Part shown: one piece after another, positions 1 through 25,477 of the stretch | Layout: each line of letters starts with the position of its first letter | Numbering within the stretch: position 1 is the stretch's first letter | Assembly: GCA_964610335.1 (NCBI GenBank) | Contig: CAZSVP010000001.1 | Span: 61,324-125,323, forward strand | Direction: 5' to 3' | Origin: an uncultured Candidatus Saccharibacteria bacterium | GTDB taxonomy: Bacteria > Patescibacteriota > Saccharimonadia > CAILAD01 > BJGX01 | Length of the DNA stretch: 64,000 bases | The notes under the pieces: generated by a model | Told to the model about the DNA's origin: nothing | The model's database searches: none | The model's input: only the letters and a program-made list of their open reading frames with translations | Made by a program: the position numbers and the translations under genes

Positions 1-554
1 TGTAATCCTTTTAGGGCTAGACGAATACGATCTTGAGTATCTAGCTTGGCATCAACATCCTTGAGCGCCTTACGGGCATCGTCGGTAGTAAATCCAAGTT
101 GTTTTAGTGCCAGTACAGCAGGATCGTCGTTGGCACTGACAGGTGCTTCTGCTTCCACAATCTTACCCTTCAACTCCAGAATAATTCTCTGTGCAGTTTT
201 TTTACCAATGCCCGATACATTGCTAAACAGTGTGATGTCTCCCGTGATAGTGGCAGTTTGGACTTCGTCTACCGTATGTTTGCCAAGAATTGCCATGGCA
301 GCCTTTGGCCCCACACCGTTGACCGAGGTGAGTTGATAGTAACAAACCCGCTGATCGAGTGTGGCAAAGCCATATAGAGTGTACTCGTCTTCCTTGATAT
401 TCTCCGCAATGTAAAACGATGCTGGCTGACCAATAGTAAGCTCGCTAAGCTCACTTGCCGAAGGCACAACTTCGTAGCCCACGCCACTGGTAATCTCCAC
501 TATGGCGCTATGAGGCATGAGTTCTATAACTGTTCCGGTTATTTTCGCAATCAC
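1..554 (-). CDS. ruvA: Holliday junction DNA helicase RuvA. The C-terminal few residues run off the window start. GTG start at 552-554.
   Basis: Reverse-strand translation VIAKITGTVIELMPH...LTSVNGVGPKAAMAIL...GIGKKTAQRIILELKG matches the RuvA OB-fold plus tandem helix-hairpin-helix motifs. An in-frame TGA lies just upstream of the GTG. ruvC is immediately upstream. Confidence 0.85.
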   Translation of the reverse strand, partial: MIAKITGTVIELMPHSAIVEITSGVGYEVVPSASELSELTIGQPASFYIAENIKEDEYTLYGFATLDQRVCYYQLTSVNGVGPKAAMAILGKHTVDEVQTATITGDITLFSNVSGIGKKTAQRIILELKGKIVEAEAPVSANDDPAVLALKQLGFTTDDARKALKDVDAKLDTQDRIRLALKGL

Positions 555-578
555 AGATGCATTATAGCATCAAATGCT

Positions 579-743
579 CTATCGGCGACGTCTGAATAGT
601 TTGGCAACCCAATGAAAAATAGCCCCCAGAATTGAGAATATACAAACTATTACTACTATCACTGCCAGCCACACAAGCAACTGAATGATGTCACAGTTCT
701 GTGTGCATGCAAACTGGTAGTTGAAGAGAGGCACTTGAATCAT
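579..743 (-). CDS. Small hydrophobic protein of 54 aa with one TM helix, lying between ruvC and ruvA. Hypothetical.
   Basis: ORF MIQVPLFNYQFACTQNCDIIQLLVWLAVIVVIVCIFSILGAIFHWVAKLFRRRR starts 8 nt after the ruvC stop. AGGAG sits 12 nt upstream. It has a TM segment plus a basic C-terminus. The longer ORF in the track (to 803) overlaps the ruvC 3' end. Confidence 0.25.
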   Translation of the reverse strand: MIQVPLFNYQFACTQNCDIIQLLVWLAVIVVIVCIFSILGAIFHWVAKLFRRRR

Positions 744-750
744 AAGCTTA

Positions 751-1221
751 TTATACTCCTTTATTACTTCCTGCGATTGCAATTGCCAGTGCATCCGCCG
801 CATCGTCCGGCTGAGGTAGCTGATCGAGCTTAAGTAACCGCATCACCATCTCTTGTACTTGTGGTTTCTTGGCTTGACCGTTGCCCGTGACAGCACTCTT
901 GATTTGTAGCGGTGTAAATTCGAGTGGCGTAAGTCCATGACTGGCTATTACATATAAAATCACACCCCGAGCCTGCGACACAGCCATGGCAGTAGTGACA
1001 TTGGTAGCAAAATAAAGCTTTTCAACTGCCACTATGTCTGGGTTGTGAGATTTGATAAGTTGATCTAAGTCATCGGCCAACATTACCAGCCGCTTACCCA
1101 TCTCTACTCCCACCGGCGTACTCACAATGCCATAATCGACCATACTAAGCTTGCCATTTTCCTTGTTAACCACCCCAAAGCCAGTGGTAGCTGTGCCAGG
1201 GTCAATGCCGAGAATGATCAT
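751..1221 (-). CDS. ruvC: Crossover junction endodeoxyribonuclease RuvC
   Basis: MIILGIDPGTATTGFGVV... shows the RNase H-like fold with the catalytic Asp in IDPG. The conserved C-terminal DAADALAIAI motif is present. Length is 156 aa. Confidence 0.9.
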   Translation of the reverse strand: MIILGIDPGTATTGFGVVNKENGKLSMVDYGIVSTPVGVEMGKRLVMLADDLDQLIKSHNPDIVAVEKLYFATNVTTAMAVSQARGVILYVIASHGLTPLEFTPLQIKSAVTGNGQAKKPQVQEMVMRLLKLDQLPQPDDAADALAIAIAGSNKGV

Positions 1222-1742
1222 TAGAATCTTACTCTTACTTTCTCAGCCATTTCTTTAGTGCAGACATATGGAAGTACATCGGAATTGGCAGTTTTTAGCT
1301 CTATCATGTCCCAGCCAGGCCGTTCGTAAATGCTCGCGTCTTCAATACTTCCACTTCGAACTGATTGCTTTAGCTTATTGTATTTCAACTCAGGCAGAAC
1401 GAAGTCTATGTCACCCACTTGTGGACTATCCCCACTAGGTTTACGAATATAAAGCCATTCGTAGGTAGCTGCCGGTACATCATTACTATCAGCTATTACA
1501 ATTGGGTCGATTAATTGAAAGTATTTTTGATTTGGATCATCCGATGGTTTAGTTTGCTCCTTTCGAAACTGTGTAAGTAGTTCATACTCGTCATCAAAGT
1601 GACAAAACACTCCAACGTCCCCGGCAACTGATAAGTACTCTCCAATTATTTGTTTACAAAGTTTGTGGCACTCTGTATGTAGATAGTTAATAGCCTGTTC
1701 TAGTTCTGACTTTGACTTGATTGGGCTAAAACGATAATCCAT
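1221..1742 (-). CDS. Hypothetical protein of 173 aa
   Basis: ORF with start/stop overlap to both neighbours (yebC and ruvC), which implies translational coupling. No recognisable motif. Confidence 0.5.
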   Translation of the reverse strand: MDYRFSPIKSKSELEQAINYLHTECHKLCKQIIGEYLSVAGDVGVFCHFDDEYELLTQFRKEQTKPSDDPNQKYFQLIDPIVIADSNDVPAATYEWLYIRKPSGDSPQVGDIDFVLPELKYNKLKQSVRSGSIEDASIYERPGWDMIELKTANSDVLPYVCTKEMAEKVRVRF

Positions 1743-2479
1743 TATTCCAGCGTACTCATAATTTCGTCGGGGATATCAAAGTTGCTAGTTACTTCTACTA
1801 CATCATCAAGGTCATCGAGTGCTTCCATGAGGTTGAGAATAGTCTTAGCTTTGCCGGCATCATCAACAACCACCGTTTGGTTGGCTTCGAGCTTCACCTC
1901 GGCACTTTCGACATTATCTTCGCCTAGCGCATCGCGGACTTTCTCCAAATCGTTTGGCGATGTGTACACCACGAGTTGGTCGCCACTGTCATCGATGTCT
2001 GTAGCGCCAGCCTCAATCGCAATTAGACTAAGTTCGTCTTTGTCGATGCCCTCTTTGCACACAACAATGCCTTTTTGCTCAAAAAGATAACTCACACTCC
2101 CGGGTGCTCCTAAGTTACCACCATGTTTACTAAACGCAGCCTTAACAGCTGGCGCTGTGCGGTTACGGTTGTCGGTGAGAGCTTTGACAAGCACAGCCAC
2201 TCCGGCTGGTCCATATCCCTCATATGCCAACTCCTCGAGCCTAGCACCGTCCCCGTTGCCAGCACCACGAGCAATGGCACGCTCTATGTTGTTGGCTGGT
2301 ACATTGGCTGCTTTGGCTTTTTGGATAGCAAGGCGTAGTTTGAAGTTCATAGTAGGATCAGCACCACCTTGTGCTGCTACAGCAATTTCTGCAGCCATCT
2401 TGGTAAATACCTTGCCACGCTTAGCGTCAGTAATACCTTTTTTATGTTTTATACTGTGCCACTTTGAATGCCCACTCAT
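1742..2479 (-). CDS. yebC: YebC/PmpR family DNA-binding transcriptional regulator
   Basis: N-terminus MSGHSKWHSIKHKKGITDAKRGKVFTKM is the hallmark of the YebC/TACO1 family. Length is 245 aa. Confidence 0.9.
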   Translation of the reverse strand: MSGHSKWHSIKHKKGITDAKRGKVFTKMAAEIAVAAQGGADPTMNFKLRLAIQKAKAANVPANNIERAIARGAGNGDGARLEELAYEGYGPAGVAVLVKALTDNRNRTAPAVKAAFSKHGGNLGAPGSVSYLFEQKGIVVCKEGIDKDELSLIAIEAGATDIDDSGDQLVVYTSPNDLEKVRDALGEDNVESAEVKLEANQTVVVDDAGKAKTILNLMEALDDLDDVVEVTSNFDIPDEIMSTLE

Positions 2480-2512
2480 GTCGAACTCCTGTCGAGCCTC
2501 TACTTTTGCGAA

Positions 2513-4057
2513 TTACTTAGTTGATTGGCTGCGCTGCGACTTCAGCGTACGAAGTTTGTACGTCTCAGCCGACAGCTTGCCATCGCCTTGAACTTCATCA
2601 AAACTAGCAGGCTCTTTACTGTTAGCTATTGGTGAAATTATAGCATTTTTCAGATCATTTTGGAACAGCTTGAGCCGAGGGTTGCGAGTTGTAAGACCTA
2701 TCCATATAAGTAGTACTGAGTAGTAAGTAGTAATTTGCCAAAGGCTCGGCTGGATGATATTGATTTGAGATATTCGCCAACTGCTGATATAGCGCAACAA
2801 GTCAAACAGCACATTTGTACCATATGCCAACCACGTCCCCATAACAATCGAAGCACCAGGCACCAGCAAGTGTAATACTACCAAGGCCATGCCTACCATC
2901 ATAAGTGGTGGGATGATTGGCATGACTATTAGATTGGCCAATGGCGCTATCAGACTTATTTGCCCAAACTTGTAAGCTACTAATCCTAATGTAGCTATTT
3001 GAGCTGCCAGTGTAACTGCCAGTAACTCCATAAGGAGTTTTGGCCTAGATGGTAGTAGCAATTGCAATCTTGGGGTTAGTACAACTATTCCCACAAGTGA
3101 TAAAAATGACAATTGCCAACTCAAATCACTTAGTAAGTACGATGGGCTAATAGTAACCATAATGGCTGCACAAATACCAAGTGCGGGCAAAACTGCTCGA
3201 TCCTTGCCGTAATATCTAAGTACCAAGAATATTGAGGTCATGATCCCGGCACGCATGATTGAGGCGCCGGCACCTGTGAGTAGCACAAACCCCCATACCA
3301 GCCACAATGAGATCGCCAATCCACCCCAGCGCCAACGGCCGTTGAGCAGTCGATCGAGCATACCAGCTAGGATTGAAAGATTGTAGCCCGACACCGCAAT
3401 CACATGAGACAGACCTAACACTGTTAGCATATCCTGCAAATCCTTCGGTAACGATGATCGCTCGCCAATCAATATCCCGACCATGAAGTCACTGCTGGGC
3501 TTGGGCAAAGTAGCACCGACCTCGTTGATCAACCAATCCTTGGCTCGGATCTCAATCGGCTGGTTGGCGCTAATAACATCTACTTTGGCATAGCGTACAC
3601 CTGCCTCTGTACGCCCGAGGGTTGGCCAGAGCTTACCACTCACCTGGACACGATTACCTTGTTTAGCTATTCCAGTAAGCGATTTAACTCTGATGTTATG
3701 ATCAAACTGTTTGCCATTGATCGAAACACTGCCAATCTCAAATACATATTCTCCTTGTTGATCCCAGCTTGGCCGAGTTGCTACAGTACCAACTGCCACA
3801 ATCTTTTGGCCAAGAAAGTTTGTATATGAATATTGCTGTGCTTGTGAAAAGTAGAGATCCCCTCTCCAAATGCCAAGGCTTAAGCCAATCACCGCAAGTA
3901 GCACATAGGCATATTTAGAGTGGACAGTCGCCAAAGCTAACACACAATAAGCTGTTAACAGCAAGATCAAATTTGGCTGTATCAAAAAATGAGCGCTATA
4001 AACAATACCAACCAGAAAGCCTAATGCGAGTATAATTATTTGGACAGTTCGACGCAT
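2513..4057 (-). CDS. comEC: ComEC/Rec2 family DNA internalisation competence channel. Membrane domain only, no metallo-beta-lactamase domain.
   Basis: 514-aa polytopic membrane protein. An N-terminal OB-like soluble insert (DUF4131-like) is followed by the competence-domain helices (...LGLSHVIAVSGYNLSILAG...). Confidence 0.7.
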   Translation of the reverse strand: MRRTVQIIILALGFLVGIVYSAHFLIQPNLILLLTAYCVLALATVHSKYAYVLLAVIGLSLGIWRGDLYFSQAQQYSYTNFLGQKIVAVGTVATRPSWDQQGEYVFEIGSVSINGKQFDHNIRVKSLTGIAKQGNRVQVSGKLWPTLGRTEAGVRYAKVDVISANQPIEIRAKDWLINEVGATLPKPSSDFMVGILIGERSSLPKDLQDMLTVLGLSHVIAVSGYNLSILAGMLDRLLNGRWRWGGLAISLWLVWGFVLLTGAGASIMRAGIMTSIFLVLRYYGKDRAVLPALGICAAIMVTISPSYLLSDLSWQLSFLSLVGIVVLTPRLQLLLPSRPKLLMELLAVTLAAQIATLGLVAYKFGQISLIAPLANLIVMPIIPPLMMVGMALVVLHLLVPGASIVMGTWLAYGTNVLFDLLRYISSWRISQINIIQPSLWQITTYYSVLLIWIGLTTRNPRLKLFQNDLKNAIISPIANSKEPASFDEVQGDGKLSAETYKLRTLKSQRSQSTK

Positions 4058-4102
4058 ACATCATAGATTAGTACTATGAGCATTTTATAGACAAGCATAA
4101 TA

Positions 4103-4127
4103 AATAAAAAATCCGCACACGGCGGAA
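4103..4127 (-). terminator. Rho-independent terminator following tRNA-Lys
   Basis: Minus-strand read tccgccgtgtgcgga followed by ttttttattt. Confidence 0.5.
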
Positions 4128-4133
4128 ATCTCA

Positions 4134-4210
4134 TGGAGGGCCCGGTGGGACTCGAACCCACGACACCCTGCTTAAAAGGCAGGTGCTCTAACCAACTGAG
4201 CTACGGGCCC
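4134..4210 (-). tRNA. tRNA-Lys (anticodon TTT)
   Basis: Reverse complement gggcccgtagctcagttggttagagcacctgccTTTTAAgcagg...ggttcgagtcccaccgggccctcca. Cloverleaf with a 7-nt anticodon loop cTTTTaa and an encoded CCA. Confidence 0.9.
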
Positions 4211-4283
4211 TTACGGTTTAGTACATGTAAGAGCAATTAATCTACTTTTAACCTGATTATTCTACTGCTTTTGAAGACAAAAA

Positions 4284-5447
4284 TCAATGCTCACGATCTT
4301 GTATGTGAGATTTGTACCGAGCATTGGCATCGCGAGCTGCGTCGCCCATAAGTTCAGCAATGCTACGCCTGTGAACATCGGCTAGTTCTTCGGCACCGTG
4401 TTGTCTGGCAAGAGAGTACTTTGGAGGTACCGGGAACCACATGTTTAGCTCCATAACTCTCCAACGCTGGCCATCCCACGCAGCGTCTACTGCCCCATGC
4501 AAATGGTTTACTTCTGCCCTGGTTAGTATGTCATTGGCTATTGTGGTTGCCATACTTTCCAATTCAGGTGGCAAGTGTTGCTGAATATCAAGCAAAAGCC
4601 AATCGTCGTCTTCAGTATCTCTAGTGCGTACTGTTTGGTCACCCTTGGGCTTAAATAGCCTCGCATAAGGTATGATCAACTTCTTATCACCCCAGTACAG
4701 CATCAGTCGAACTTCCTTGGGGTCATGTTTGTGTGCCTCATAATCTTGCTTGCAGCTTGATATTACTGCATTGGCTATTTCACTAGGGAAGGGTTGTTTT
4801 GTATCAATCAACTCTTGCAACAAGTAGCCGTGTTCGCGATTGAGATTCAAATCAATCTGGCCATCGGCACTCAACAAATGTGTTGTCCCGTCTTGTTGTA
4901 CCTCTACCTTGTACTTGTTGTCGTCCAGCAAATCTTGTTTGGGTACTATAAGCCGACCTCGGCTATCCTCAGACTTAACAGGTTTTAATACCACTGAGTC
5001 AGTACCAATATCTTGCAACTGCTTTTTTAACTTGTCAGGCTCGACGACCAAAGTAAGTGGCTGTAAATCACCTATAAACTCATAAGCCTTGTCTTTCTCG
5101 TCAAGTTCTCTTACCTTAGCTGCATTTACAACACTTGGCCCAAACTGCTCAACCTCTGGTGCAATGTCACGTCCGTAGGTACGAATCGAAGTTGCCCCTA
5201 CCGGCATCTCTTGATCCGCCGGGCTGGTTTTGACATGCAAGCTATCACCATCTCTTTCAATATTGACGGCATACGGCACTACCATCCCTGACTCCATATC
5301 AAACTGTTCGTTGCCACGTACTACAAAGACTTCTACCCCTTGGCCATGAAGTTCCTCAATAACTCTACGATAGCCCTCACCACTCAAAGTCTTGTCGCTA
5401 CCATAACCTTCACGAAAGTACATCAAGGATTTATCATTGGTTTCCAT
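4284..5447 (-). CDS. Divergent ATP-grasp family protein of 387 aa with a roughly 150-aa N-terminal extension
   Basis: ATP-grasp-like motifs: VVLKPVKSEDSRGRLIV (phosphate-binding loop), YLLQELID (hinge), and AVDAAWDGQRWRVMELNMWFP (the Mg-binding E-x-N motif). It is the last gene of the RimK-like operon. Confidence 0.5.
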   Translation of the reverse strand: METNDKSLMYFREGYGSDKTLSGEGYRRVIEELHGQGVEVFVVRGNEQFDMESGMVVPYAVNIERDGDSLHVKTSPADQEMPVGATSIRTYGRDIAPEVEQFGPSVVNAAKVRELDEKDKAYEFIGDLQPLTLVVEPDKLKKQLQDIGTDSVVLKPVKSEDSRGRLIVPKQDLLDDNKYKVEVQQDGTTHLLSADGQIDLNLNREHGYLLQELIDTKQPFPSEIANAVISSCKQDYEAHKHDPKEVRLMLYWGDKKLIIPYARLFKPKGDQTVRTRDTEDDDWLLLDIQQHLPPELESMATTIANDILTRAEVNHLHGAVDAAWDGQRWRVMELNMWFPVPPKYSLARQHGAEELADVHRRSIAELMGDAARDANARYKSHIQDREH

Positions 5448-5490
5448 ACCAACAATTGTAACTTAAATGGCTATAAATTAGTAATGCTTA

Positions 5491-6396
5491 CTAGGCGCCG
5501 ATACGATCTTTACGGCGTTTGCCAAGAGCCTTGTCAACGACATAGTCAATGATCTCACCAGCTATGTCTTCACCCGTTTGCTGTTCAATGCCTTGCAGGC
5601 CAGGGCTGGAGTTTACCTCTAGCACCAGTGGTCCTTTTTGTGAGCGAATAATGTCAACTCCTGCTATGTTAAGCCCTAGCGTTCGAGCTGCCTTGATCGC
5701 CACATTGGCTTCTTTCTTGGTAAGTTCTGCTGGTTGGGCCTTACCACCGCGATGTAGGTTGCTACGAAAATCACCTTCAGCTCCCTTGCGAAGCATAGCA
5801 CCTACAACTCGATCCCCCACAACTATTACTCTCAAATCTGCTCCGTTGGCTTCCTCAATAAATTCTTGGATTAATATGTTGGCACCTAGCCCATAAAATG
5901 CATCGATTACTGACTTGGCAGCTTTCTTTGTTTCGGCCAGAACCACACCAATACCATGAGTACCTTCTAATAGTTTAATAATCACAGGTGTGCCACCAAC
6001 CATATCAAGTAGCTCCTCGGTGTATTCACCTTCACGAGCAAAGACTGTCTTGGGAATATTTACTCCAGAACGAGCAAGTATCTGCATGCTACGTAGCTTG
6101 TCGCGACTGCGTACCAAGGCCAGTGAGCTAACAGAACAATACTTACGCATCATCTCAAACTGCCTGATAACCGCACTACCATAAGAAGTGATGGATTGAC
6201 CAATTCGAGGAATTACTATGTCTACATCGGCTAGTGACTCGCCTTCAAATACGATGTTAGGTTTGTTGGACTCAATGTCCATATAGCATTTTGCATGATT
6301 CACTACCAACGCCTCATGGCCTCGTTTTTCACAAGCTTCTACAAGTCGCATAGTAGTATAGTTTTTGGGGCCTCTTGAGAGGATAGCAATTTTCAT
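5491..6396 (-). CDS. rimK: RimK-family alpha-L-glutamate ligase (ATP-grasp)
   Basis: 301 aa. [21 protein letters not shown]..., [35 protein letters not shown], and [21 protein letters not shown] are canonical RimK/ATP-grasp motifs. Confidence 0.85.
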
Positions 6397-6400
6397 AGTC

Positions 6401-8665
6401 TTATTTTACCAGTAATTTAGCAGTATCTACTAGGAATCGCCCAGCCAAAGCTCGACGACCTAACAAAGCCGGGAATATCATATTTGATCGATTACTCAAT
6501 GTAAAGGGCGTTACGAAGGTCTTGCCATTTACAGCAACCTCCAAATATACGACGTACCTGGTTTCTAACACCCCACTGGTGTTACGCACTCGGACCGTTT
6601 CATAGTCGTAGGATGTTGCTGGCTTTTCGGTTGATGCTGAAGGATGTTTTTCAACCAATGGCCAATACTTGATATAGTTCTTACCTTGCTGATCAACCTC
6701 TTCGACAACATCCTGACAATGTAGTGCACTGTAGTCTGCCCCAGAGTCAACTCGTGCTTCCACACCACTAAGGCCTAGCTGCTGAAAATCAAGCATTGCT
6801 TTGCGACCAATAATGTCAGTTTGGTCAAGTTGCTTGGATGATTTGCGAGTTTTGGGACGTGCTGCAAATGAAGTACTTGCCATCAAAAACAACACATTGC
6901 GGTGTTCGGACTTAAAAATATTGTCTTTAGAGTAGGCATAATGCTCACTTGTCATAGGATCGATTAGATAATTTCCAATGCGCGAGAAGTAACTGCTAGA
7001 ATCCTGCAATATTGGGTCGAACAATCTAGAGTTGTATCCACAAAGTGATGCTGCAACCAAGAACTCGTATTTATTATCAAGGCTAACACTCGCCCAAGAT
7101 TTATATATTGTCCTTTCGGCGACTTTTAGTAGCGCGCTACAGCGTAGGTCATTAACTCCCACATTATAAAACTCAGACAACCCAATAATAATATGTGTTA
7201 CAAAGTATAGCTGCAGTTGATCAGCAGTAGCTTGATCGATGCCTAGCCTACTTTTATTGGCTGCATAGCTATCGGCAATCTCTGTTAGTGCTGGCAATGG
7301 ATCCGGCAGCTGTTTTGATAGCTTCATGTTATGTTTGCTATAGAACCTGGCAAGATACAAGAAGTTTATGGCGTGGGTTGAAAGTATCATGAGTGCGTCT
7401 TTGTCTTCAAGCAAAACATTGTATAACTCGACCATGTACTTTTCATCTACGAACTTCTTGGCTTGTTCTCGCAGATCTTGTTGGTATATAGTCTCACAAA
7501 ACAGAACTTTAAATAGTATTCCGGTATAAGCTGTCAGTTGTGGATATTTAGCAAAGTACGGCGCTCTAGCCTCGGCATTCTTTGTCTTCTTACCACGAGT
7601 CTTTGAGTTTGTTTCAAAGATCTTCTGTAATTTACCAGCTGATTCCTTTGCTGAGAGACCTATGTATTCTTCTCTTAGTTCTAGCAAACGATGATGATAC
7701 TGTATATCCCTACCCCAGAGATACATACGCGAGTAATAATGGAACGCTTTGTTTTGGTTTGTTTTAAACGCCTGATCAAATGTGTCTTTGACAGCAAGGT
7801 AGGTTTCTTTGTGCCGAGTTTGAGAATTTTTTAGGTAGCTACAGATATTGGCAGCAACATCAATGCCAGTAACGTTTTGGAATTCTTGCCAATCAGCGGT
7901 AGTGCCAATTTCCAAAATGTAATACTGCTTAGTACGCTCATCTTGAATAATATCAATACTTGCAAACTCCAGCCCAAAGACTGCAGTTGCTCGTAGCGAC
8001 GTAGCTTTGAGCTGTTCTAATATGGCAGTATTTGACTCTTCTGCAGCCATACCACCTTGGCTAATATTGTTCACGATACTACCTGGTTTTGCACTACGAT
8101 GCATTACTCCAAGTACAGATCCGTTCAACACTAAAACACGCCAGTCACCTTTGTTTGGTATGTAGGTTTGGAATATATAATCCTTGTACTTCTTATCAAA
8201 CTTAGGCAAGTCAGTATTACTTTTAAGCAATACAATATTCTTGCCTTTTGTACCATAATTTGGCTTAGCAATAATAGGGAAGTATACTACACCCTGCTTG
8301 ATAGCATCTTCTAAGTCACTTAAGTTCCTTGGCCGAACTGTCGGGATAGCATACTCAGGCATATTCTCAGCTATCACGCTTTGCTGATAATATTTGTAGC
8401 TTGTATATGGGTTGTTAAGCGATATTCTATTGAGTAAGTGGTTGTCTTGTTCAATCAGCCTAGCAGCTGCGGCTTTTTCGGAACGGATATCCAACGATGA
8501 ACTACGCCATACCACTGCGGAATTATTGAACTTAAGCTGGCTATTTAGGTCCTTTCGAGGATTCAAGTTTACTATCTTAGTACTAAACCCATGTTTTTTG
8601 GCTGACGCTTGTAACTTTTGTACATGATAGTCTTTTGAATCTCGGGAGATTATTACTAGTTTCAT
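6401..8665 (-). CDS. Three-domain fusion: N-terminal RimK-like ATP-grasp ligase (about 290 aa), an unknown alpha-helical middle domain (about 310 aa), and a C-terminal DUF785/retropepsin-like domain (the putative ATP-dependent zinc protease, RimB-like).
   Basis: N-terminus: [49 protein letters not shown]-terminus: [20 protein letters not shown]...[46 protein letters not shown], typical of Zn_protease/DUF785. Confidence 0.7.
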
Positions 8666-8670
8666 ACAAA

Positions 8671-9528
8671 CTATCCAAATCTTTTCTTAAGCTCTACCAC
8701 TACTTCTTCAGCAACATTTACTCCTGTCATAGCTTGGAAACCATTGTCTCCGTCCCACTCTGGTGCAGAGTTAATCTCTAAGAAAAAGAATGCACCTGTC
8801 GACTTGTCTTGTATCACATCAACTCCACACAATTTGTACCCAATATTGTTAGCCATTCGCACCGCTATATTACTAACCTCTCGTACAACCTCAGGGTCTG
8901 TCTCATGCTCTGAACTTCCTCCTTGAGAAATGTTGTTTAGATAGTGTCCTTTGCGAGCAATGCGCTTCATCACACCCAAAGCCCGCCCCTCAAACACAAT
9001 AATGCGCCAATCACCGTCGTTAGGGATAAAGTTTTGGAATACCATGTCTGAAATGATTGGCTTTATTTCCTTTAGTTGAATGGCTGATTTTACTAGCACA
9101 ATACCCTTGCCCTGCGCACCATAATTTGGTTTGGCTATAAACGGATAATGCAGCATATTGGCTTCAATTGCTGCCTTTAATTCTTTAAGTAGATGGAACC
9201 GATAAGTAGCTATATGTGGAACATGTTTGTCGTGTTCTGCCACCATTTGCTGTACAAATTTGTACGCCACAAATGGTCGCTGCAATACTGCGTCATTGAT
9301 AACATACTTGTCTTTGAGAATCTCACCAACCACAGCTCGCTCCGATCTAATATCCAATTTGGATGCACGCCAAAGCACAACATCACCAAATTGCTCAACA
9401 TCCGCTACAATTGTATTTGGATTATGCAGGTGATGCACTTGAGCCTCAACATTGTGTTTCTTACAAGCATCAATTAGCTGTTGAACATGCCAATTACTTA
9501 TTGATTTTGAAACAATAGAAAACTTCAC
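8671..9528 (-). CDS. RimK-like ATP-grasp ligase of 285 aa with a GTG start
   Basis: HYPFIAKPNYGAQGKGIVLVKS, DWRIIVFEGRALGVMKR, and GAFFFLEINSAPEW are ATP-grasp motifs. GGAGG sits 7 nt upstream of the GTG. Confidence 0.8.
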   Translation of the reverse strand: MKFSIVSKSISNWHVQQLIDACKKHNVEAQVHHLHNPNTIVADVEQFGDVVLWRASKLDIRSERAVVGEILKDKYVINDAVLQRPFVAYKFVQQMVAEHDKHVPHIATYRFHLLKELKAAIEANMLHYPFIAKPNYGAQGKGIVLVKSAIQLKEIKPIISDMVFQNFIPNDGDWRIIVFEGRALGVMKRIARKGHYLNNISQGGSSEHETDPEVVREVSNIAVRMANNIGYKLCGVDVIQDKSTGAFFFLEINSAPEWDGDNGFQAMTGVNVAEEVVVELKKRFG

Positions 9529-9563
9529 GGCAATCCTCCGCTTTGGTTAGTAAATTTGCACTT

Positions 9564-9592
9564 ATTATACCACAAACAGATGAGTTTGCCAA
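9564..9592 (-). promoter_or_regulatory. Sigma70-type promoter of the ATP-grasp operon (TTGGCA-N17-TGgTATAAT)
   Basis: Read on the minus strand: ttggca, then aactcatctgtttgtgg, then tataat with a TG extension. It lies in the 68-bp gap upstream of the first RimK-like gene. Confidence 0.5.
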
Positions 9593-9595
9593 TTG

Positions 9596-10099
9596 TTATT
9601 TCTTCTTTCTCCTATGCTTCTTCTCTTCTTTGTTCTTGATAGGAAGCGCTGTAAACACAATCAATATTCCTAACTCAAACAGAATAATATACGCTCTAAG
9701 GTCATAGACCATGGCAGCAAGATTGTAGTTGGTGACAAGTTCCTGACGAGTGCCTACAGGTAAAAGAACCAAAGAGATTGACACACCAAACAGTGCAGTA
9801 GCTATGGCGAAGAAAATCGTTCTTAAACTGCGTTGAGCGTGTCGCTGGCCTATAAACGATGCACATATGAATATTATTGCCACAATCCAGATGATTGCTA
9901 CCTTGCGATCAGCTTTAACGATTGTTTCTGGCAAAATATTGAGTAATGACTCTGGTAGTACTTGAGCTACTACAAACCCGGCGGTCAAACCAAACGCCAT
10001 AGCTCTCACTCGAATCTCACCTAGTAACATACCGAGTGCTATACTGCTTCCGACAACAGTAGCTAATAACAGATTAAATGATGAAACAATTTGTTGCAT
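9596..10099 (-). CDS. Hypothetical polytopic membrane protein of 167 aa with a Lys/Arg-rich C-terminus
   Basis: About four TM helices. C-terminus KNKEEKKHRRKKK. Confidence 0.5.
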   Translation of the reverse strand: MQQIVSSFNLLLATVVGSSIALGMLLGEIRVRAMAFGLTAGFVVAQVLPESLLNILPETIVKADRKVAIIWIVAIIFICASFIGQRHAQRSLRTIFFAIATALFGVSISLVLLPVGTRQELVTNYNLAAMVYDLRAYIILFELGILIVFTALPIKNKEEKKHRRKKK

Positions 10100-10162
10100 G
10101 CTATGCCCAGTATAAGCCTAAGCATAATGCCATAACAAGCCAATCAATAGCTCAAATACAAT

Positions 10163-11083
10163 CTAACCAAAGAATCGACGCTTACCTGATTTTTGGAACT
10201 CTCTTAGTAGTTCTTTTTGCTTGGCACTAAGCTTAGTAGGTATCTCCACTGCTATCTGCACCAAATGGTCACCATGTCGTTCACTTCCTACTACCGGCAT
10301 ACCTTTGCCACTTAGTTTGAGAATCTTACCATTCTGGGTACCCTCAGGTACTTTGATAGTCACATCACCGCTTATAGTCTCCACCTCAAGTTCTCCACCA
10401 ATTGCTGCAGTCACCATGTCTATTGTCGCTTCAGTAATAATATCCGACCCTTGTCTGTGCCACCTACGATCAGGCCGAATTTGAACTCGTACATAAAGAT
10501 CTCCCCGACTACCGTCTTGACCGACTTCACCCTTGTTAGACAACTTCACAGCCTGGCCGTCATCAATACCCGCTGGTATCTTGATCTTAACTTCTTCGTT
10601 CTTGCGCTCACCAGCCTTGTGATCAGCCACACGAAGACTCAGCTCTTTGGTTGTACCATGTATAGCTTCATCAAAATCGATTGTGATGGATATTTCAACA
10701 TCACGGGCTCGCCCACGCCCGCCACTATTGAAAAACATCTCAAATATGTCATTGATACCACCCCCACCAAAATCGAACTGCACACCATCAAATCCTTGGG
10801 CACCACCAAAACCAGCACCGAATGGATTGCCACCCATGCCAGCCCCTTGATCGTTGAAACCAGCATTACCAGCTCCCGCAGCATGCCCAAACTGATCGTA
10901 AGCTTGACGCTTCTTCTCATCGCTGAGCACTTCATAGGCCTCGTTGACTTCTTTGAAGGCCGTTTCATCCCCACCCTTGTCAGGGTGATGTTCTACTGCT
11001 TTGCGGCGAAAAGCTTTTTTTATTTCGTCCTGGGTAGATGATTTTTCAACACCAAGAACTTCGTAGTAATCACGTTGGCTCAT
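10163..11083 (-). CDS. dnaJ: DnaJ-class co-chaperone, type II/CbpA-like: J-domain plus G/F-rich region, with no zinc-finger CxxCxGxG repeats
   Basis: DYYEVLGV...HPDK J-domain. A Gly/Phe-rich linker. A C-terminal substrate-binding domain. No Cys repeats. Location is downstream of dnaK. Confidence 0.8.
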
Positions 11084-11085
11084 GG

Positions 11086-11718
11086 CTACTTATTGGACCT
11101 TTTAAAACTTTCTACAATGTCAGATTTACTAAAAGTGATAGTACTATTTACGTGGGCGACAATGGCTTTGTTCAAATTCTTGTCATATCCCACATAAGTT
11201 ATCTTGTGCCCACGCTCTTTTACAATACGCAGTGCTGGGATTACATCCGAGTCGGAACTTACAATAACAAAATGCAAGTTCTTGTTCTCATAAGCAGCTT
11301 GTACCATGTCAACCGCTATGGTTACATCCACTCCCTTTTCTTGAAAAATCACATTTTCACCACGCTTGCGCGCCTTGAGGTTACCAGCCGTTATAAACTC
11401 AATCTTTTGTTTGGCTAGCCACGATCCCCAAGCACGCTTTTGTTCTACCATCTTAAGAGTCGCCTCGTGAGTTTCTTCGCCCATATCCTCAATAATATGA
11501 AGCTTGGTACCATAGTATCGTACGTTGATCGGCTTGATGTTATCCTTAACTGCATCGATAAAGAGTGAGATCATATCGATCTTGAGTAGTTCGGCACGCT
11601 CGCTTATCAACTTCTCCTTGACCAGCACGTCCACCAACTGATAGAACAAGTTTTCTCCGTCTATATAGATGTTGGCAGGCGTTTTGGTGCCTGGATTGTT
11701 ATCATTCATAGTACTCAT
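11086..11718 (-). CDS. NYN-domain (LabA-like, PIN-fold) protein inserted between dnaK and dnaJ
   Basis: [28 protein letters not shown], and [29 protein letters not shown] match the NYN/DUF88 catalytic Asp constellation. Confidence 0.7.
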
Positions 11719-11752
11719 TATAAACCACCATTAGTAATGTTGGTTTATAACA

Positions 11753-13684
<1,932 letters not shown>

Positions 13685-14209
13685 TTATTCTCCTTTTATT
13701 ACTTTACTAGTATTTTTGGCTTGTCCACTACTTACCTTGACTCGTGCTGGACGCACTACTCGCTCGCCGATTTTGTAGCCTGGAGTAATTACCTCTACCA
13801 CGATGTTCTCTGGTTTGTTCGAGTCTATGTACTCAATCGCTTCATGTTGGTTATGATCAAACTTCTGACCGACTGGATTAAGTTTGGTTATGTTCATCTC
13901 AGTAAGTTGATCGTTGAGCTGTTGGCCTATATAACTTATGCCTTTTGCCCAAGCATTGTCTGTTAGATCGTCTGGCAAATGGTTGGCCGCTAAATTCAGG
14001 TTATCTAGTGCTGGTAAAAGCTCACCCAACACGGCCTCCTTAGCATGGTCCATTAACTCACCACGTTCTGAAGCAACACGTTTTTTGTAGTTTTCAAACT
14101 CAGCTTGAAGCCTTTGCAAATGCACAGTCAACTCTCCAATCTGCTGCTCATACTCAGCCGCAGATTTAGGTTTTGACTTCTTGATAGCTGGCTTCTTTTC
14201 TGGTTTCAT
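13685..14209 (-). CDS. grpE: Nucleotide exchange factor GrpE
   Basis: Coiled-coil N-terminus. ENYKKRVASERGE... matches GrpE. It sits between hrcA and dnaK. Confidence 0.88.
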   Translation of the reverse strand: MKPEKKPAIKKSKPKSAAEYEQQIGELTVHLQRLQAEFENYKKRVASERGELMDHAKEAVLGELLPALDNLNLAANHLPDDLTDNAWAKGISYIGQQLNDQLTEMNITKLNPVGQKFDHNQHEAIEYIDSNKPENIVVEVITPGYKIGERVVRPARVKVSSGQAKNTSKVIKGE

Positions 14210-14214
14210 ACTAT

Positions 14215-14919
14215 TTATACTTCGCTAAATACTTCTTCGAGTGCTTGTGATGTGGTCTCGACTAGGTTCATAACCTTGCCATAGCTTTGTCGGGTGGGAC
14301 CGACTATACCTATATAGCTATGCTGACTATATGGCGATGTGAACCGATTCACGATCATGGTAAGGCCACTGGTTTCTACCACCGGGTTCTCGCGCCCTAT
14401 ATAGACCTGTAAGTTATCAAGTTTGCTTTCAAACAACCAAGCCTGCATAGCATCTAGAAATCGAGCTGCTTGGCTGGCTTCAATCTGAGCAGCAAACTCT
14501 GGTTGGCTAAACAACTGGTTCAGGCCATGAAAGTAAACTGTGTCACTGAGCGTGGCAAAAGCCATATTGCCGGTCAGATCGCTCAAGGTTTCGGCAGCAA
14601 TTTTTATAGCACTGTCAGTCCGATCCTTGAGCGAATCTACCCGCTTGGTTATCGTCTGGAGACTTCGTCCAGACGGGGAAGCTTGTTGTTCGGTTACGTT
14701 ATTTACATAATAGCGATATCCTTTGTCGGTTGGTACGCGTCCAGCTGAAATATGTGGCTGGTGTATGTAGCCGGCTTCTTCTAAATGCGCCATCTCCGCC
14801 CGTATAGTGGCTGAAGAAAGACCAAAGGTTCGGGAAAGCTCCCGTGAGCTAACAGGCTCAGCCGAATCAGCGTAGAGCCGTACTACCTCCAAAAGAATGT
14901 CGCTTTGGCGATCTGTCAT
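14215..14919 (-). CDS. hrcA: Heat-inducible transcription repressor HrcA (short form). Start placed at MTDRQSDILLEVV.
   Basis: N-terminal wHTH MTDRQSDILLEVVRLYADSAEPVSSRELSR matches the HrcA N-terminus. The C-terminus has GPTRQSYGKVMNLV. CIRCE operators lie upstream. The longer ORF-track start at 14961 would overlap the operator and the -10 element. Confidence 0.82.
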   Translation of the reverse strand: MTDRQSDILLEVVRLYADSAEPVSSRELSRTFGLSSATIRAEMAHLEEAGYIHQPHISAGRVPTDKGYRYYVNNVTEQQASPSGRSLQTITKRVDSLKDRTDSAIKIAAETLSDLTGNMAFATLSDTVYFHGLNQLFSQPEFAAQIEASQAARFLDAMQAWLFESKLDNLQVYIGRENPVVETSGLTMIVNRFTSPYSQHSYIGIVGPTRQSYGKVMNLVETTSQALEEVFSEV

Positions 14920-14947: not shown

Positions 14948-14974
14948 TTAGCAGTCAACACCCATGAGTGCTGA
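14948..14974. promoter_or_regulatory. CIRCE operator 1 (TcAGCACTC-N9-GAcTGCTAA), overlapping a TTGACT-N17-TATGAT promoter at 14930-14958
   Basis: An inverted repeat matching the CIRCE consensus TTAGCACTC-N9-GAGTGCTAA, with one mismatch per arm. It lies immediately upstream of hrcA. Confidence 0.7.
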
Positions 14975-14996
14975 CTACAATACTAGTGTAACTAAA

Positions 14997-15023
14997 TTGG
15001 CACTCTCATGTCAAGAGTGCCAA
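14997..15023. promoter_or_regulatory. CIRCE operator 2 (TTgGCACTC-N9-GAGTGCcAA), overlapping an upstream TTGACA -35 at 15009-15014
   Basis: A perfect 9-9 inverted repeat with a 9-nt spacer. It is one mismatch per arm from the consensus. Confidence 0.7.
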
Positions 15024-23629: not shown

Positions 23630-25477
23630 TTATTTTGCTGGCTTGGCCTTGCGCTCGGCTGTGACTTGTTTGTCTATTGGAGCAAATAGTTTTTCGAACT
23701 CAGGTCCTTCAAGAGTTTCTTTTTCAATCAAGGTGTTGGCAATTAAGTCGAGTTGTTTGCGGTTTTTGACAATCACTTCTTGAGCTTTTTTACTTGCTTC
23801 ATCTATCAGCTTTGCTACTTCGTCATCTATCTTGGCAGCCATCTCTTCAGAGTAACTACGGCCCTCGCCCATACTACGGCCCAAGAATATTGAGCTCTCA
23901 CTATCACCAAAGTAGCGATTATTAAGCTGGGCGCTCATACCGTATTCAGTTACCATACGTCGAGCTAGCCCATTGGCGTGCTTAAGATCACTCTCGGCAC
24001 CAGTAGTAATGCTATCATCTCCAAACACTACTTTTTCAGCCGTGCGTCCACCAAGACTCATAGCTAGGTCATCACGAAAATCAGCAATAGAATGCAGATG
24101 TTTGTCTTCTTCCGGCAAACTCCAAGTTACTCCACCCGCCATGCCACGGCTCACAATCGATACCTTATGAACAGGGTGGCAATGTGGCAACAAGTGGCTT
24201 AGCAAGGCATGTCCAGCCTCATGAAAAGCCGTGATCTTCTTTTCTTCGTCGTTTAGAATATGACTTTTGCGCTCTGGGCCGAGGGCAATTTTTTCAACTG
24301 CCTCATGGAAGTCAGACTGCTGTACCTTCTTGCGGCCCGAACGAGCAGCAAAAATCGCCGCTTCGTTGGCAATGTTGGCTAGGTCAGCACCAGATACACC
24401 AGGTGTTTTGCGAGCAACTTCTTTGAGATTTACTCCTGATTCAAGTGGCTTATTCTTGGTGTGAACTTCGAGTATTTCCTCACGAGCTTTCAGATCTGGT
24501 GCATCAAGAGTGATACGACGATCAAAACGACCTGGCCGCAACAATGCAGGGTCCAGCACATCAGGGCGATTGGTTGCCGCCATCACAATCACGTTGGTAC
24601 CTTGCTCAAACCCATCCATCTCCACCAGTATTTGATTGAGAGTCTGCTCGCGCTCATCATGGCCACCACCCAAACCAGTACCACGTTGGCGACCTACTGC
24701 ATCGATCTCATCAACAAATATAATACATGGCGCGTTCTTCTTGGCCTTGGCAAATAAGTCACGCACCCGGCTTGCACCAACACCAACAAACATTTCTACA
24801 AACTCTGAGCCTGAGATACTAAAGAATGGTACATCGGCTTCACCAGCGACTGCACGTGCCAACAAAGTTTTACCAGTGCCTGGACTACCAAACAACAGTA
24901 CACCTTTTGGAGTTTTAGCGCCCAAAGCCTCAAACTTAGCTGGGTATTTGAGAAATTCTACAATCTCTTCAAGCTCAGTCTTGGCTTCGATGTTGCCAGC
25001 AACATCGGTAAATCTAACCTTTTCTTTTTCCAGCCCAGATACTCGCGCCTTGCTACGGCCAAAGTTCATTGCTTGATTGTTGCTGCCCTGTGCCTGGCGC
25101 ATAATAAAGTAGAAGAATCCTATAATAAGAGCAATTGGCAAGAAGGCTAGTATGATATCAATCCAGCGACCTGAGCCGTCATCTGGGTTCTTTGGTTCTA
25201 CCTTGACCTTGCTATAGTCTATTCCGTAGTCTTTGAGGCTAGTTGCATTTTCCTTATACGATTCTTCCTTGCCACCGTCTTTGAGGGTGACTGTGAGTTT
25301 GTTACCAACTAGCTCAATCTTCTCAACCTGTCCTTGATTGGCTTGTTCCAGCACTTTACTGAGCGATACTTGAGCTGGCTTGGGCTCGTTGTTCATGAAT
25401 ATCAAGTACAACAATACTAGCGCTATAGCAACGCCTGATATATAAAACACGTTTTTGGGAATATTTTTTAGATTCAT
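23630..25477 (-). CDS. ftsH: ATP-dependent zinc metalloprotease FtsH
   Basis: Two N-terminal TMs, AAA module [18 protein letters not shown], and the HEAGHAL zinc motif. Confidence 0.95.

Follow-up and report, generated by a model that had tools for sequence, protein, structure and literature searches.

Post-translational reprogramming of the ribosome is known from few bacterial systems. One of them is the S6 polyglutamylation module of Pseudomonas, RimK/RimB or RimABK (PMC4741518, PMC7343187, PMC11957791), which makes poly-alpha-glutamate too. The biochemistry of RimK and RimB has been described (PMC11957791, PMC7343187, PMC10092738), and the retropepsin RimB takes glutamates off polyglutamylated S6 and also stimulates the synthesis of poly-alpha-glutamate (PMC11957791, PMC7343187). 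Furthermore, RimB-RimK hybrid proteins have been characterised, such as DP2392 of Desulfotalea psychrophila (PMC11957791), and when a RimBK hybrid was assayed in the literature, Pseudomonas S6 was not glutamylated; RimK/RimB pairs themselves may thus act on other targets. The RloABC system of Pseudomonas aeruginosa affects osmotic tolerance and cell shape (PMC12239564). A comparable logic is found in eukaryotes, where ATP-grasp enzymes of the tubulin tyrosine ligase/TTLL type extend acidic C-termini and peptidases (MATCAP/CCP) remove the additions. Cyanophycin synthetase CphA1 consists of an ATP-grasp G domain and a Mur-ligase-like M domain, and gene neighbourhoods combining predicted alpha-L-glutamate ligase-like proteins with a 7TM inactive transglutaminase and a peptidase were reportedly described by Iyer et al. 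in 2009 (Mol Biosyst 5:1636).

The locus studied here lies in a window of 64,000 nt, the whole stretch of DNA that was analysed, from an uncultured Candidatus Saccharibacteria bacterium. Its features are the following.

9596 to 10099, minus strand: g0, a 167-aa membrane protein (some four hydrophobic segments, basic tail)
9564 to 9592, minus strand: sigma-70-type promoter, TTGGCA (9592-9587), 17 nt, TATAAT (9569-9564)
8671 to 9528, minus strand: g1, a stand-alone ATP-grasp ligase of 285 aa, with a GTG start and a GGAGG Shine-Dalgarno sequence
6401 to 8665, minus strand: g2, 754 aa, domain order ATP-grasp, toroid, peptidase
7811 to 8665, minus strand: N-domain of g2 (residues 1-285), ATP-grasp, paralogue of g1
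6830 to 7819, minus strand: middle domain of g2 (residues 283-612), predicted all-alpha (alpha/alpha)6 toroid
6401 to 6835, minus strand: C-domain of g2 (residues 611-754), RimB/RloA-type retropepsin-like aspartic peptidase
5491 to 6396, minus strand: g3, orthodox RimK (S6 / poly-alpha-L-glutamate ligase; NF007764), 301 aa
4284 to 5447, minus strand: g4, a highly divergent ATP-grasp ligase of 387 aa from an unannotated family
4134 to 4210, minus strand: tRNA-Lys(UUU), downstream of g4
4112 to 4126, minus strand: hairpin (TCCGCCGTGTGCGGA) and T-run resembling an intrinsic terminator, closing the unit

A preliminary description of this DNA had proposed four co-directional genes 4-44 bp apart, preceded by a near-consensus promoter and closed by a tRNA-Lys and a terminator. 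This layout is borne out: the four minus-strand genes are separated by spacers of 5, 4 and 43 nt, the promoter can be read in the sequence as TTGGCA-N17-TATAAT with a TG at the extended -10 position, and the tRNA-Lys(UUU) is followed by the hairpin and T-run at 4126-4112. The promoter, which leaves a leader of about 35 nt up to the g1 start codon, is the best site and the sole 11-of-12 match in a scan of positions 3900-10300, where promoter-like sites overall are not enriched (22 found versus 14.2 +/- 4.2 expected). Furthermore, a TTGnnn-N17-TATAAT element occurs at the same position 5' of the first ATP-grasp gene in related loci (L001/L007, L004/L005, L008 and L009). The co-transcription of g1-g4 is thus supported by short spacers and by one strong promoter whose position is conserved. 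The GC content of the cluster is that of its surroundings, which argues against a recent import.

With 380.9 bits against NF007764 (equivalog cutoff 331), 259.6 bits against TIGR00768 (cutoff 143.4) and 229 and 129 bits against the Pfam RimK and Rimk_N domains, g3 is, judged by its scores, a bona fide RimK and the sole strict one among g1-g4. It matches the RimK of Pseudomonas (7qyr) with 358 bits and that of E. coli (4iwx) with 339 bits, aligns gap-free to the former over residues 1-287 and has intact ATP/Mg motifs (IIKLLEG, IQEFI, DLRVIV, AGVDII and LEVNS). Three RimK paralogues had initially been recognised in the operon, an assignment that stands for g3 only: g1 (100.1 bits) and g2 (103.8 bits) fall under the TIGR00768 cutoff of 143.4 and are thus RimK-like rather than RimK, their scores against the Pfam RimK domain being 77 and 69 bits, respectively.

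Indeed, g1 and the N-domain of g2, which share 36% identity, form part of a separate, Patescibacteria-wide ATP-grasp-DUF3541 clade, a family of at least 223 proteins in Patescibacteria. The g1 protein is 46-49% identical to the N-domains of the fusion proteins of three-gene loci, and its catalytic motifs AKP, GAQGKG, CGVD and LEINS are all intact. In the g2 N-domain, GKG is changed to GKN (N143), CGVD to ASID and E-x-N to E-I-G (G254), with the loss of one conserved Gly and of the Mg-binding Asn that g1 both retains. Outgroup N-domains are nearer to g1 than to the g2 N-domain; the changes in the latter are specific to its lineage, with g1 as the conservative copy. The two motif substitutions suggest that the g2 N-domain is probably catalytically impaired, in which case the operon may encode three active ligases and not four.

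The middle domain of g2 is confidently modelled (pLDDT 94.8) as an (alpha/alpha)6 toroid of about 320 residues, among which Y487, T490, H491, F499, Y500, D530, K532, E534, E587 and H588 are invariant and H309, R313 and R367 nearly so. It is probably a distant relative of DUF3541 (PF12060). Taken alone, it gives nothing against PF12060 even at E<=1 (gathering score 28.2); two of its homologues exceed the gathering score (P0012, 31.7; P0016, 33.3), and a profile built on it retrieves many proteins already annotated as PF12060, including stand-alone ones of about 305 aa. This domain had been overlooked in the preliminary description.

The protease fusion that had been suspected in the operon is confirmed by a PF05618 match over residues 619-750 of g2 (57.3 bits, cutoff 27), with an intact catalytic D640-S641-G642 motif and a C-terminal LLGRRAL motif. 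Sequence matches in the PDB are 2pma (4e-5) and the PF05618-family chains 9g58/9g59, with whose DTG the DSG of g2 aligns. The domain scores below the NCBIfam RimB equivalog cutoff (NF052261, 57 bits versus 200) and almost equally well against RloA3 (55.7 bits); these scores make it a member of the family that is not assignable to RimB proper.

As for g4, introduced as a fourth, divergent ATP-grasp enzyme, it is a member of the ATP-grasp superfamily according to its predicted fold (a moderate model, pLDDT 61.8) and to profile comparisons. A shallow profile of 8 sequences found no ATP-grasp match, whereas one of 48 sequences matches LysX/RimK 3vpd (1.5e-9), RimK 4iwx (6e-7), GshB, Ddl and CphA, and hhalign against the local RimK alignment gives 97.8% with an E value of 1.1e-12 over 237 columns. 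The conserved motif residues are K155, Q211-E212, R247, D321, E333 and N335; the family retains every ATP/Mg motif residue, K155, R247, D321, E333 and N335 being invariant or nearly so. An ATP-grasp domain was hence found in all four proteins, g1-g4, the point on which the original reading of the operon had been staked.

Like RimK/RimB, the operon joins an orthodox RimK to a cytoplasmic, co-transcribed PF05618 peptidase domain in which D-S/T-G is kept, and this points to the same ligase-plus-trimmer logic. Unlike Pseudomonas RimABK, it has no RimA (EAL) gene; RimB is a free protein of 150 aa, whereas the peptidase is here the C-terminus of a 754-aa ATP-grasp-toroid protein, and two ATP-grasp ligases, g1 and g4, are added. 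The RimBK hybrid (PMC11957791) shares with g2 the presence of a retropepsin and an ATP-grasp domain in one polypeptide, and some RimBK genomes, as the window operon, have an additional separate rimK. In RimBK, however, the peptidase is N-terminal and joined straight to a true RimK in a protein of about 460 aa (one such gene is present in L017), while the g2 peptidase is C-terminal and the ATP-grasp domain of g2 is no orthologue of RimK and looks degenerate. RloABC likewise pairs an ATP-grasp ligase with a retropepsin from this Pfam family, but the operon has neither a 7TM-transglutaminase nor a secreted peptidase, and the partner ligase is RimK, not of the ATPgrasp_ST/RloC type. No RloB-type PF14402 protein was found in positions 1-14300; it is present only in other Patescibacteria loci, where the orthologue of the g2 ATP-grasp-DUF3541 part lies inside a set of the RloABC/Iyer type. 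With CphA1, the operon would share ATP-dependent, non-ribosomal poly-amino-acid synthesis through an ATP-grasp domain; its multi-gene layout is different, and an identity as cyanophycin synthetase was rejected on the best TIGR02068 score in the window (g3, 66.7 bits against a cutoff of 850, at most 8%) and the absence of a Mur-type ligase from the window.

Because RimK/RimB pairs and RimBK hybrids are already characterised (PMC11957791, PMC7343187), the claim that such a system had not been described was overstated. Novelty lies in the order of the domains, in the toroid, in the g4 family and in the linkage to dnaJ. To our knowledge, two protein families of the operon, ATP-grasp-DUF3541 and g4, have been studied by nobody.

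The whole arrangement was found again in independent assemblies (L001, L004, L005, L007 and L008), and its upstream portion in L020 and L021, where the contig ends at the fusion gene; such repetition makes it neither a chance nor an assembly artefact. The cluster sits immediately behind hrcA-grpE-dnaK-(NYN)-dnaJ. The meaning of this adjacency had been left open at first; the position is conserved and recurs in distant lineages (L009, L017, L018 and L019), which suggests use in proteotoxic or stress conditions, though the proximity of dnaJ could be inherited synteny instead of a functional link. In L009, the ATP-grasp-DUF3541 protein, a 169-aa RimB-like protein (4-nt overlap) and RimK are encoded by separate, contiguous genes beside dnaJ, and the fusion of the first two in g2 links the ATP-grasp-DUF3541 protein to RimB. 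A MATCAP-family gene adjoins this L009 cluster.

Outside Saccharibacteria, all seven sampled ATP-grasp/DUF3541 loci (L009-L014 and L022, with a stand-alone DUF3541 in L011) have a PF05618 retropepsin and further ATP-grasp genes at most three genes away. Distant relatives of g4 are found in arrays of dnaJ, g4-like, Mur-ligase-like and RimB-RimK genes (L016, L017) or, in L018 and L019, immediately downstream of dnaJ at the end of the contig, and L006 holds a g4 homologue without RimK neighbours. The ATP-grasp-DUF3541 and g4 families each adjoin retropepsin/RimK genes in unrelated lineages. As stated in the preliminary description, no precursor or substrate gene is visible within the operon, where intergenic gaps of 4-66 nt leave no room for a small ORF; no precursor peptide was seen in the related loci either, and rpsF, rpsR and ssb were found neither in the window nor in any related locus fetched.

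We lean, with modest confidence, towards reading this self-promoted chromosomal operon as an expanded Rim-type module of amino-acid ligases and a trimming peptidase. It would most likely use ATP to build an acidic peptide tail or polymer on a putative target and trim this product by proteolysis; given the RimK identity of g3, the ATP-grasp domains and the RimB-like retropepsin, ribosome-independent peptide tailing or polymer synthesis coupled to trimming, as proposed from the outset, is the likely function. In such a scheme, g3 would add L-glutamates stepwise, driven by ATP, onto a carboxylate acceptor, and g1 and g4 would be active ligases with differing substrate loops and would add other residues; alternatively, they may act at other positions of the same acidic peptide, by priming, capping or side-chain branching. 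The toroid of g2 may hold or recognise the substrate, and its degenerate ATP-grasp domain would most likely serve as a scaffold for docking g1 or RimK. The RimB domain would trim the tail or polymer, presumably as a dimer held together by oligomerisation of the ATP-grasp part, and, like RimB towards RimK, may have a stimulating effect on the ligases.

The presence of RimK/RimB in reduced Saccharibacteria genomes suggests an important chemistry, more elaborate than that of Pseudomonas or E. coli, with two or three more ligases, a toroid domain, a fused protease and a conserved heat-shock-operon neighbour. A fold and a likely role are assigned to two uncharacterised families (g4 ATP-grasp and ATP-grasp-DUF3541), and the enzymes are candidates for new non-ribosomal peptide-tailing reactions, the operon giving a handle on the stress physiology of organisms very difficult to study. 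In a bolder version, which we regard as rather unlikely, RimK, the g4-family ATP-grasp, an ATP-grasp-toroid or CphA-M-like ligase and the retropepsin would form a hitherto unrecognised multi-ligase machine with a mixed, possibly branched product. Conserved in Saccharibacteria/Patescibacteria and genomically coupled to the DnaK/DnaJ operon, it would make and edit a peptide tail or polymer of mixed composition instead of plain poly-Glu, acting on the ribosome or other cytoplasmic proteins under stress. If true, this would give bacteria an equivalent of the tubulin code or of cyanophycin logic.

The neighbourhoods of most other Patescibacteria point towards the envelope instead of the ribosome: the orthologous ATP-grasp-DUF3541 gene of L010-L014 and L022 has a 7TM-transglutaminase and an ATPgrasp_ST-retropepsin fusion (Rlo-like) as its neighbours, with a class A PBP behind it in L011-L013, and L011 additionally carries a glycosyltransferase, a FemAB and a Mur ligase. 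The ligases might accordingly make or alter a glycan- or wall-attached peptide, or else a storage or capsule polymer that is acidic and akin to poly-Glu or cyanophycin, an explanation that we hold unlikely, and equally so its extension to a sugar-binding toroid and a polymer-remodelling retropepsin in parallel to Pseudomonas RloABC. The Rlo phenotype (PMC12239564) fits it, as does L017, where the g4-like gene and RimBK are separated by a Mur ligase resembling the CphA M domain (175 bits, TIGR02068 positions 475-860), a separate gene of this kind being present in the L017-type relatives only. The best structural neighbours of the toroid include glycoside hydrolases (GH105/GH88/GH15) and sugar epimerases, but peptide-acting LanC-like enzymes share this fold and the invariant residues fit no glycosidase family. 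Moreover, genes for a 7TM-transglutaminase, PBP, glycosyltransferase, Mur-type ligase or exporter are absent from the window cluster, as are signal peptides; the four proteins appear cytoplasmic, and g3 scores as an equivalog-level RimK.

This same equivalog status, with g3 about as close to Pseudomonas RimK as E. coli RimK is, would suit an ordinary RimK/RimB pair for S6 glutamylation beside which g1, the g2 ATP-grasp-toroid and g4 are independent and only co-located; such pairs are widespread, and extra rimK copies beside hybrids are on record. This is rather improbable, for the partner to which the peptidase is covalently joined is the ATP-grasp-toroid protein and not RimK, the genes are 4-43 nt apart behind one promoter, and the g4 and ATP-grasp-DUF3541 families adjoin retropepsin/RimK genes in distant lineages whose gene content is otherwise different.

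MptN and CofF glutamylate tetrahydromethanopterin and F420, and LysX/ArgX act on a carrier protein. A comparable role for the operon, in extending a cofactor or metabolite with glutamates or in carrier-bound chemistry, is very improbable: MptN is the best NCBIfam match of g1 (102.8 bits), the LysX and CofF models match g1 and g2, and cofactor roles of RimK homologues are noted in the literature, but the MptN, LysX and CofF scores are far under the equivalog cutoffs (350, 275.6 and 300), cofactor-pathway and LysW-type carrier genes are absent from the operon and nearby, and a fused endopeptidase of the polyglutamate-specific type makes little sense for a cofactor tail. Graspetide-like RiPP maturation, with ATP-grasp macrocyclases and a leader peptidase acting on a ribosomal precursor, is hardly credible, since the MvdC/MvdD/GRASP models give 20-40 bits where their cutoffs lie at 350-475, precursors are lacking as noted above, and the nearest families are amide ligases of the RimK/LysX/GshB type.

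Two further elements flank the operon. The membrane protein g0, without a family match in Pfam and NCBIfam profile searches, lies between dnaJ and the cluster in every Saccharibacteria case and is missing from L009 and L017-type loci; it may or may not belong to the ligase system. None of g0-g4 matched the PADLOC anti-phage defence models. The tRNA-Lys(UUU), whose synteny is kept in all Saccharibacteria loci, is probably without functional tie to the ligases; a weak promoter-like site of its own lies at 4287-4259.

The coordinates that the preliminary description had assigned to an operon of four ATP-grasp ligase genes (g1 to g4 in transcription order) are correct: all four open reading frames lie head to tail on the minus strand, with intergenic spacers of 5, 4, and 43 nt (g1/g2, g2/g3, and g3/g4, respectively).

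Features of the cluster and its flanks (window coordinates)
9596-10099, minus strand: g0, a 167-aa membrane protein with about four hydrophobic segments and a Lys/Arg-rich C-terminus
9592-9564, minus strand: cluster promoter, TTGGCA-N17-TATAAT with a TG extended -10, 5' of g1
8671-9528, minus strand: g1, 285 aa
6401-8665, minus strand: g2, 754 aa
5491-6396, minus strand: g3, 301 aa
4284-5447, minus strand: g4, 387 aa
4134-4210, minus strand: tRNA-Lys(UUU), downstream of g4
4126-4112, minus strand: hairpin and T-run, downstream of tRNA-Lys

The first gene starts with a GTG codon preceded by GGAGG, and its promoter is the sole 11-of-12 match in a promoter scan of 3900-10300. Since promoter-like sites in general show no enrichment in this region (22 seen vs 14.2 +/- 4.2 expected), this match is weak evidence when taken alone. 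However, TTGnnn-N17-TATAAT occurs at the same position before the leading ATP-grasp gene in each of six related loci, which come from different assemblies. At the other end, no terminator was found between g4 and tRNA-Lys. This tRNA was considered as a functional partner of the ligases and rejected: its position is conserved, but the whole neighborhood is equally so, which we treat as synteny, and tRNA plays no part in ATP-grasp chemistry. The tRNA gene could be driven separately from the operon by a weak promoter-like site (TTGATT-17-TAGAAT, 4259-4287, minus strand) that overlaps the stop codon of g4.

The third gene encodes a textbook RimK, with Pfam RimK and Rimk_N domains, a score of 380.9 bits against the NCBIfam equivalog NF007764 (cutoff 331), and 358 and 339 bits against the RimK structures of Pseudomonas and E. 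coli, respectively. RimK attaches L-Glu at the S6 C-terminus and also produces poly-alpha-Glu; RimB, a homodimeric retropepsin for which five contiguous Glu abutting a folded protein are enough for recognition, strips glutamates from polyglutamylated RpsF, binds RimK, and tunes both the ATPase and the poly-Glu output of that enzyme; RimB-RimK hybrids that have RimB as their N-terminal part are known, and some RimK or RimBK proteins may act on targets other than S6 (PMC11957791, PMC7343187, PMC10092738). Pairing a ligase with a retropepsin is a known principle, RimK and the hybrid proteins are known as well, and the core system is characterized. No rpsF was found in the window or in any of the 22 related loci fetched for comparison (L001-L022), and tblastn with approximate E. 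coli and B. subtilis queries for S6, S18, and SSB gave no match in any of them. When the window was screened for candidate substrates, taken as ORFs with acidic C-termini or E-runs, the DnaK tail alone came up, which is uninformative. Family-model scores did not place the proteins in RiPP, cofactor-tail, or cyanophycin families.

The preliminary description had seen one of the ligases as fused to a putative protease, which holds for g2, and had overlooked a separate domain at residues 283-612 of this protein. This middle domain is an (alpha/alpha)6 toroid distantly related to DUF3541 (PF12060), the threshold of which is passed by g2 homologs and not by the window copy alone. Its profile retrieves 223 proteins from Moranbacteria, Minisyncoccota, Dojkabacteria, and other Patescibacteria, most of them 590-aa two-domain ATP-grasp-DUF3541 proteins and some 305-aa stand-alone DUF3541 proteins. 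Ten polar or aromatic residues, including H491, D530, K532, E534, E587, and H588, are invariant across 125 sequences, and several of them appear to sit at helix starts, the placement seen in this fold's funnel-shaped active sites. The fold leaves the chemistry open, being compatible with peptide as well as sugar binding. The last 140 residues form a retropepsin-like peptidase of PF05618 (57 bits vs 27) that scores equally weakly against the NCBI RimB and RloA3 models and matches the solved family members 2pma and 9g58/9g59, D640-S641-G642 aligning with the catalytic DTG. The ATP-grasp, toroid, retropepsin architecture is new, and so is the identification of DUF3541 with an (alpha/alpha)6 toroid that, across Patescibacteria, is tied to ATP-grasp and retropepsin systems.

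The N-terminal ATP-grasp domain of g2 (residues 1-285, g2N) is 36% identical to g1, and each is about 26% identical to g3; both match the Pfam RimK domain, yet score under the RimK-family cutoff. In every genome with four genes (the window, L001, L007, and the homologous proteins P0009 and P0010), g2N carries three motif substitutions, with GKN replacing GKG in the Gly-rich loop (N143 in the window), ASID replacing CGVD, and E-[IV]-G replacing the Mg-binding E-x-N (G254 in the window). The consensus motifs are kept in g1, in the fusion proteins of three-gene loci, and in all outgroup ATP-grasp-DUF3541 proteins. Outgroup N-domains are nearer to g1 than to g2N: 46-49% vs 38% in L004, L005, and L008, 44% vs 36% in L009, and 33-38% vs 25-35% in L010 and L012-L014. 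A neighbor-joining tree likewise groups g1 with the Saccharibacteria fusion N-domains and leaves g2N on a long branch. We read these sequence relationships as a duplication of the ATP-grasp domain within one Saccharibacteria lineage, after which the free copy g1 would have retained activity and the fused copy would have relaxed and probably turned into a scaffold. Such a degenerate/active pair of ATP-grasp paralogs is new.

The product of g4, with no match in Pfam, NCBIfam, or PDB sequences, had been called a fourth, divergent ATP-grasp enzyme. Its homologs form only seven clusters among 5.8 billion proteins, and their alignment displays the VLKP, LLQE-I, EVRLM, G-A-x-D, and MELN motifs in the expected order, with every ATP/Mg residue retained in g4. 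A comparison with a shallow profile failed to show an ATP-grasp link. An exhaustive HMM search of 1.84 billion representatives added 47 distant relatives, none of them Pfam-annotated, and the resulting 48-sequence profile matched LysX/RimK, GshB, Ddl, and cyanophycin synthetase in the PDB (best 1.5e-9) and aligned to a local RimK alignment from the pre-ATP-grasp domain through the E-x-N motif (97.8% probability, E 1e-12). Because both comparisons are positive, the original assignment is right. New, too, is the role of the g4 ATP-grasp family as a partner conserved with RimK/RimB.

The closest genome records to the window are uncultured Candidatus Saccharibacteria MAGs. The block dnaJ-g0-[g1]-g2-g3-g4-tRNA-Lys-comEC is kept in L001, L004, L005, L007, and L008, and L020/L021 match its upstream part up to the fusion gene, at which the contig ends. 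The GC content of the cluster genes is that of their surroundings. The cluster is stable chromosomal content and not a mobile island; recent horizontal transfer or a mobile element is ruled out by GC content and deep synteny, and a defense system by the lack of PADLOC matches.

Outside Saccharibacteria, L009 comes from a different lineage (its dnaJ is 46% identical) and carries, adjoining dnaJ, an ATP-grasp-DUF3541 gene, a separate gene for a 169-aa RimB-like protein (4-nt overlap), and RimK, so that in g2 of Saccharibacteria the first two members of an already existing gene trio are fused. Between dnaJ and this trio, on the opposite strand to it, L009 encodes a MATCAP/QEGLA-motif (PF08014, TIGR02421) metallocarboxypeptidase homolog (4467-5804, minus strand), an arrangement resembling the eukaryotic tubulin ligase/carboxypeptidase cycle. 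The distant g4 relatives from metagenomes in L016 and L017 show the order (NYN-)dnaJ, g4-like gene, Mur-ligase-like gene, RimB-RimK, the last gene of L017 being a true RimBK hybrid with RimB N-terminal; L018 and L019 have a g4-like gene directly after dnaJ, at the contig end, and L006 has a g4 homolog without RimK nearby. Two independent families, ATP-grasp-DUF3541 and g4, thus each show a link to retropepsin and RimK genes. The stand-alone Mur-ligase-like protein (L017 7005-8306, L016 624-1904), encoded between the g4-like ATP-grasp and RimB/RimK, is nearest the M domain of cyanophycin synthetase (175 bits, TIGR02068 positions 475-860), suggesting side-chain branching chemistry in this version of the system.

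L012, L014, and L022 share another set, comprising YebC and/or RuvC, a 7TM inactive transglutaminase, an ATPgrasp_ST-retropepsin fusion, a 310-aa ATP-grasp, and ATP-grasp-DUF3541, followed in L012 by one more ATP-grasp and a class A PBP; L010, L011, and L013 are variants of it, the genes of L013 being called in fragments. Many Patescibacteria carry this kind of block, which is an Rlo-like operon (PMC12239564) with an additional two or three ligases. Three or four ATP-grasp genes in tandem, together with a fused retropepsin, thus recur as a theme in Patescibacteria. The YebC and RuvC genes of Saccharibacteria are situated immediately past comEC, at the cluster's other side.

Taken as a whole, we lean slightly toward the cluster being an expanded Rim module. 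The analysis establishes the identities of the domains, the state of their motifs, the structure of the operon, and the co-occurrence of the genes; the substrate, the amino-acid specificities, the scaffold role, and a coupling to stress are inferred. In the proposed mechanism, g3 would polymerize Glu onto a carboxylate acceptor, and g1 and g4, as intact ligases with different substrate loops, would lengthen, prime, cap, or branch that acidic peptide. Substrate binding would fall to the toroid of g2, the retropepsin of g2 would trim the peptide, and its degenerate ATP-grasp domain would provide oligomerization and docking. The main rival, a role in the envelope or in polymer synthesis, is unlikely on balance; it draws on the Rlo-like and PBP contexts of orthologous ATP-grasp-DUF3541 genes, on the glycosidase-like fold of the toroid, and on the CphA-M-like ligase of L017. 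A plain RimK/RimB pair with unrelated neighbors seems to us rather less probable still and fits more poorly than an expanded module; cofactor glutamylation, which is quite improbable, and RiPP maturation, the most doubtful of all, also fit more poorly. The literature searched yielded no relevant work on DUF3541, on Saccharibacteria and RimK, or on Patescibacteria and ATP-grasp. The cluster brings to light two enzyme families that lack prior study, and it offers an extension of bacterial protein-tail chemistry that can be tested.

Upstream of the cluster lies a classical heat-shock operon, hrcA-grpE-dnaK-NYN-dnaJ, followed by g0. The conserved linkage of the cluster to the dnaK operon is new, and the position behind dnaJ is found again in lineages in which DnaJ shares only 40-46% identity with the DnaJ of the window; the cluster may be coupled to stress. 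Two CIRCE-like inverted repeats (14948-15023; TTAGCAGTC-N9-GAGTGCTGA and TTGGCACTC-N9-GAGTGCCAA) lie at or just upstream of the hrcA start, with 2 mismatches each and 0.01 expected by chance, and the heat-shock operon is therefore probably under HrcA control. Both repeats are upstream of hrcA only, and no CIRCE operator precedes the ATP-grasp cluster. The NYN-domain gene (a predicted RNase; 11086-11718, minus strand) is inserted between dnaK and dnaJ, a position kept in L001 and L020/L021, and it also precedes dnaJ in the distant L017; an inorganic pyrophosphatase gene takes its place in L004/L005. The g0 protein, which has no family match, is in Saccharibacteria always encoded between dnaJ and the ATP-grasp cluster (29-66% identity), and in the window the cluster promoter's -35 box directly adjoins the g0 stop codon.

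Elsewhere in the window, two giant proteins of 1173 and 1158 aa (20045-23566 and 39816-43292, minus strand) both carry a Peptidase_S74 intramolecular-chaperone domain near the C-terminus, with many YadA-head repeats in one and Kelch repeats in the other. They are probably self-cleaving surface fibers or adhesins, and as such bear on the epibiotic lifestyle. Finally, three tRNA-Met(CAT) genes occur within 5 kb (27190-27381 and 32163-32238, minus strand) just downstream of tilS (25474-26805), and the tRNA-Ile2 (lysidine) substrate may be one of the three.
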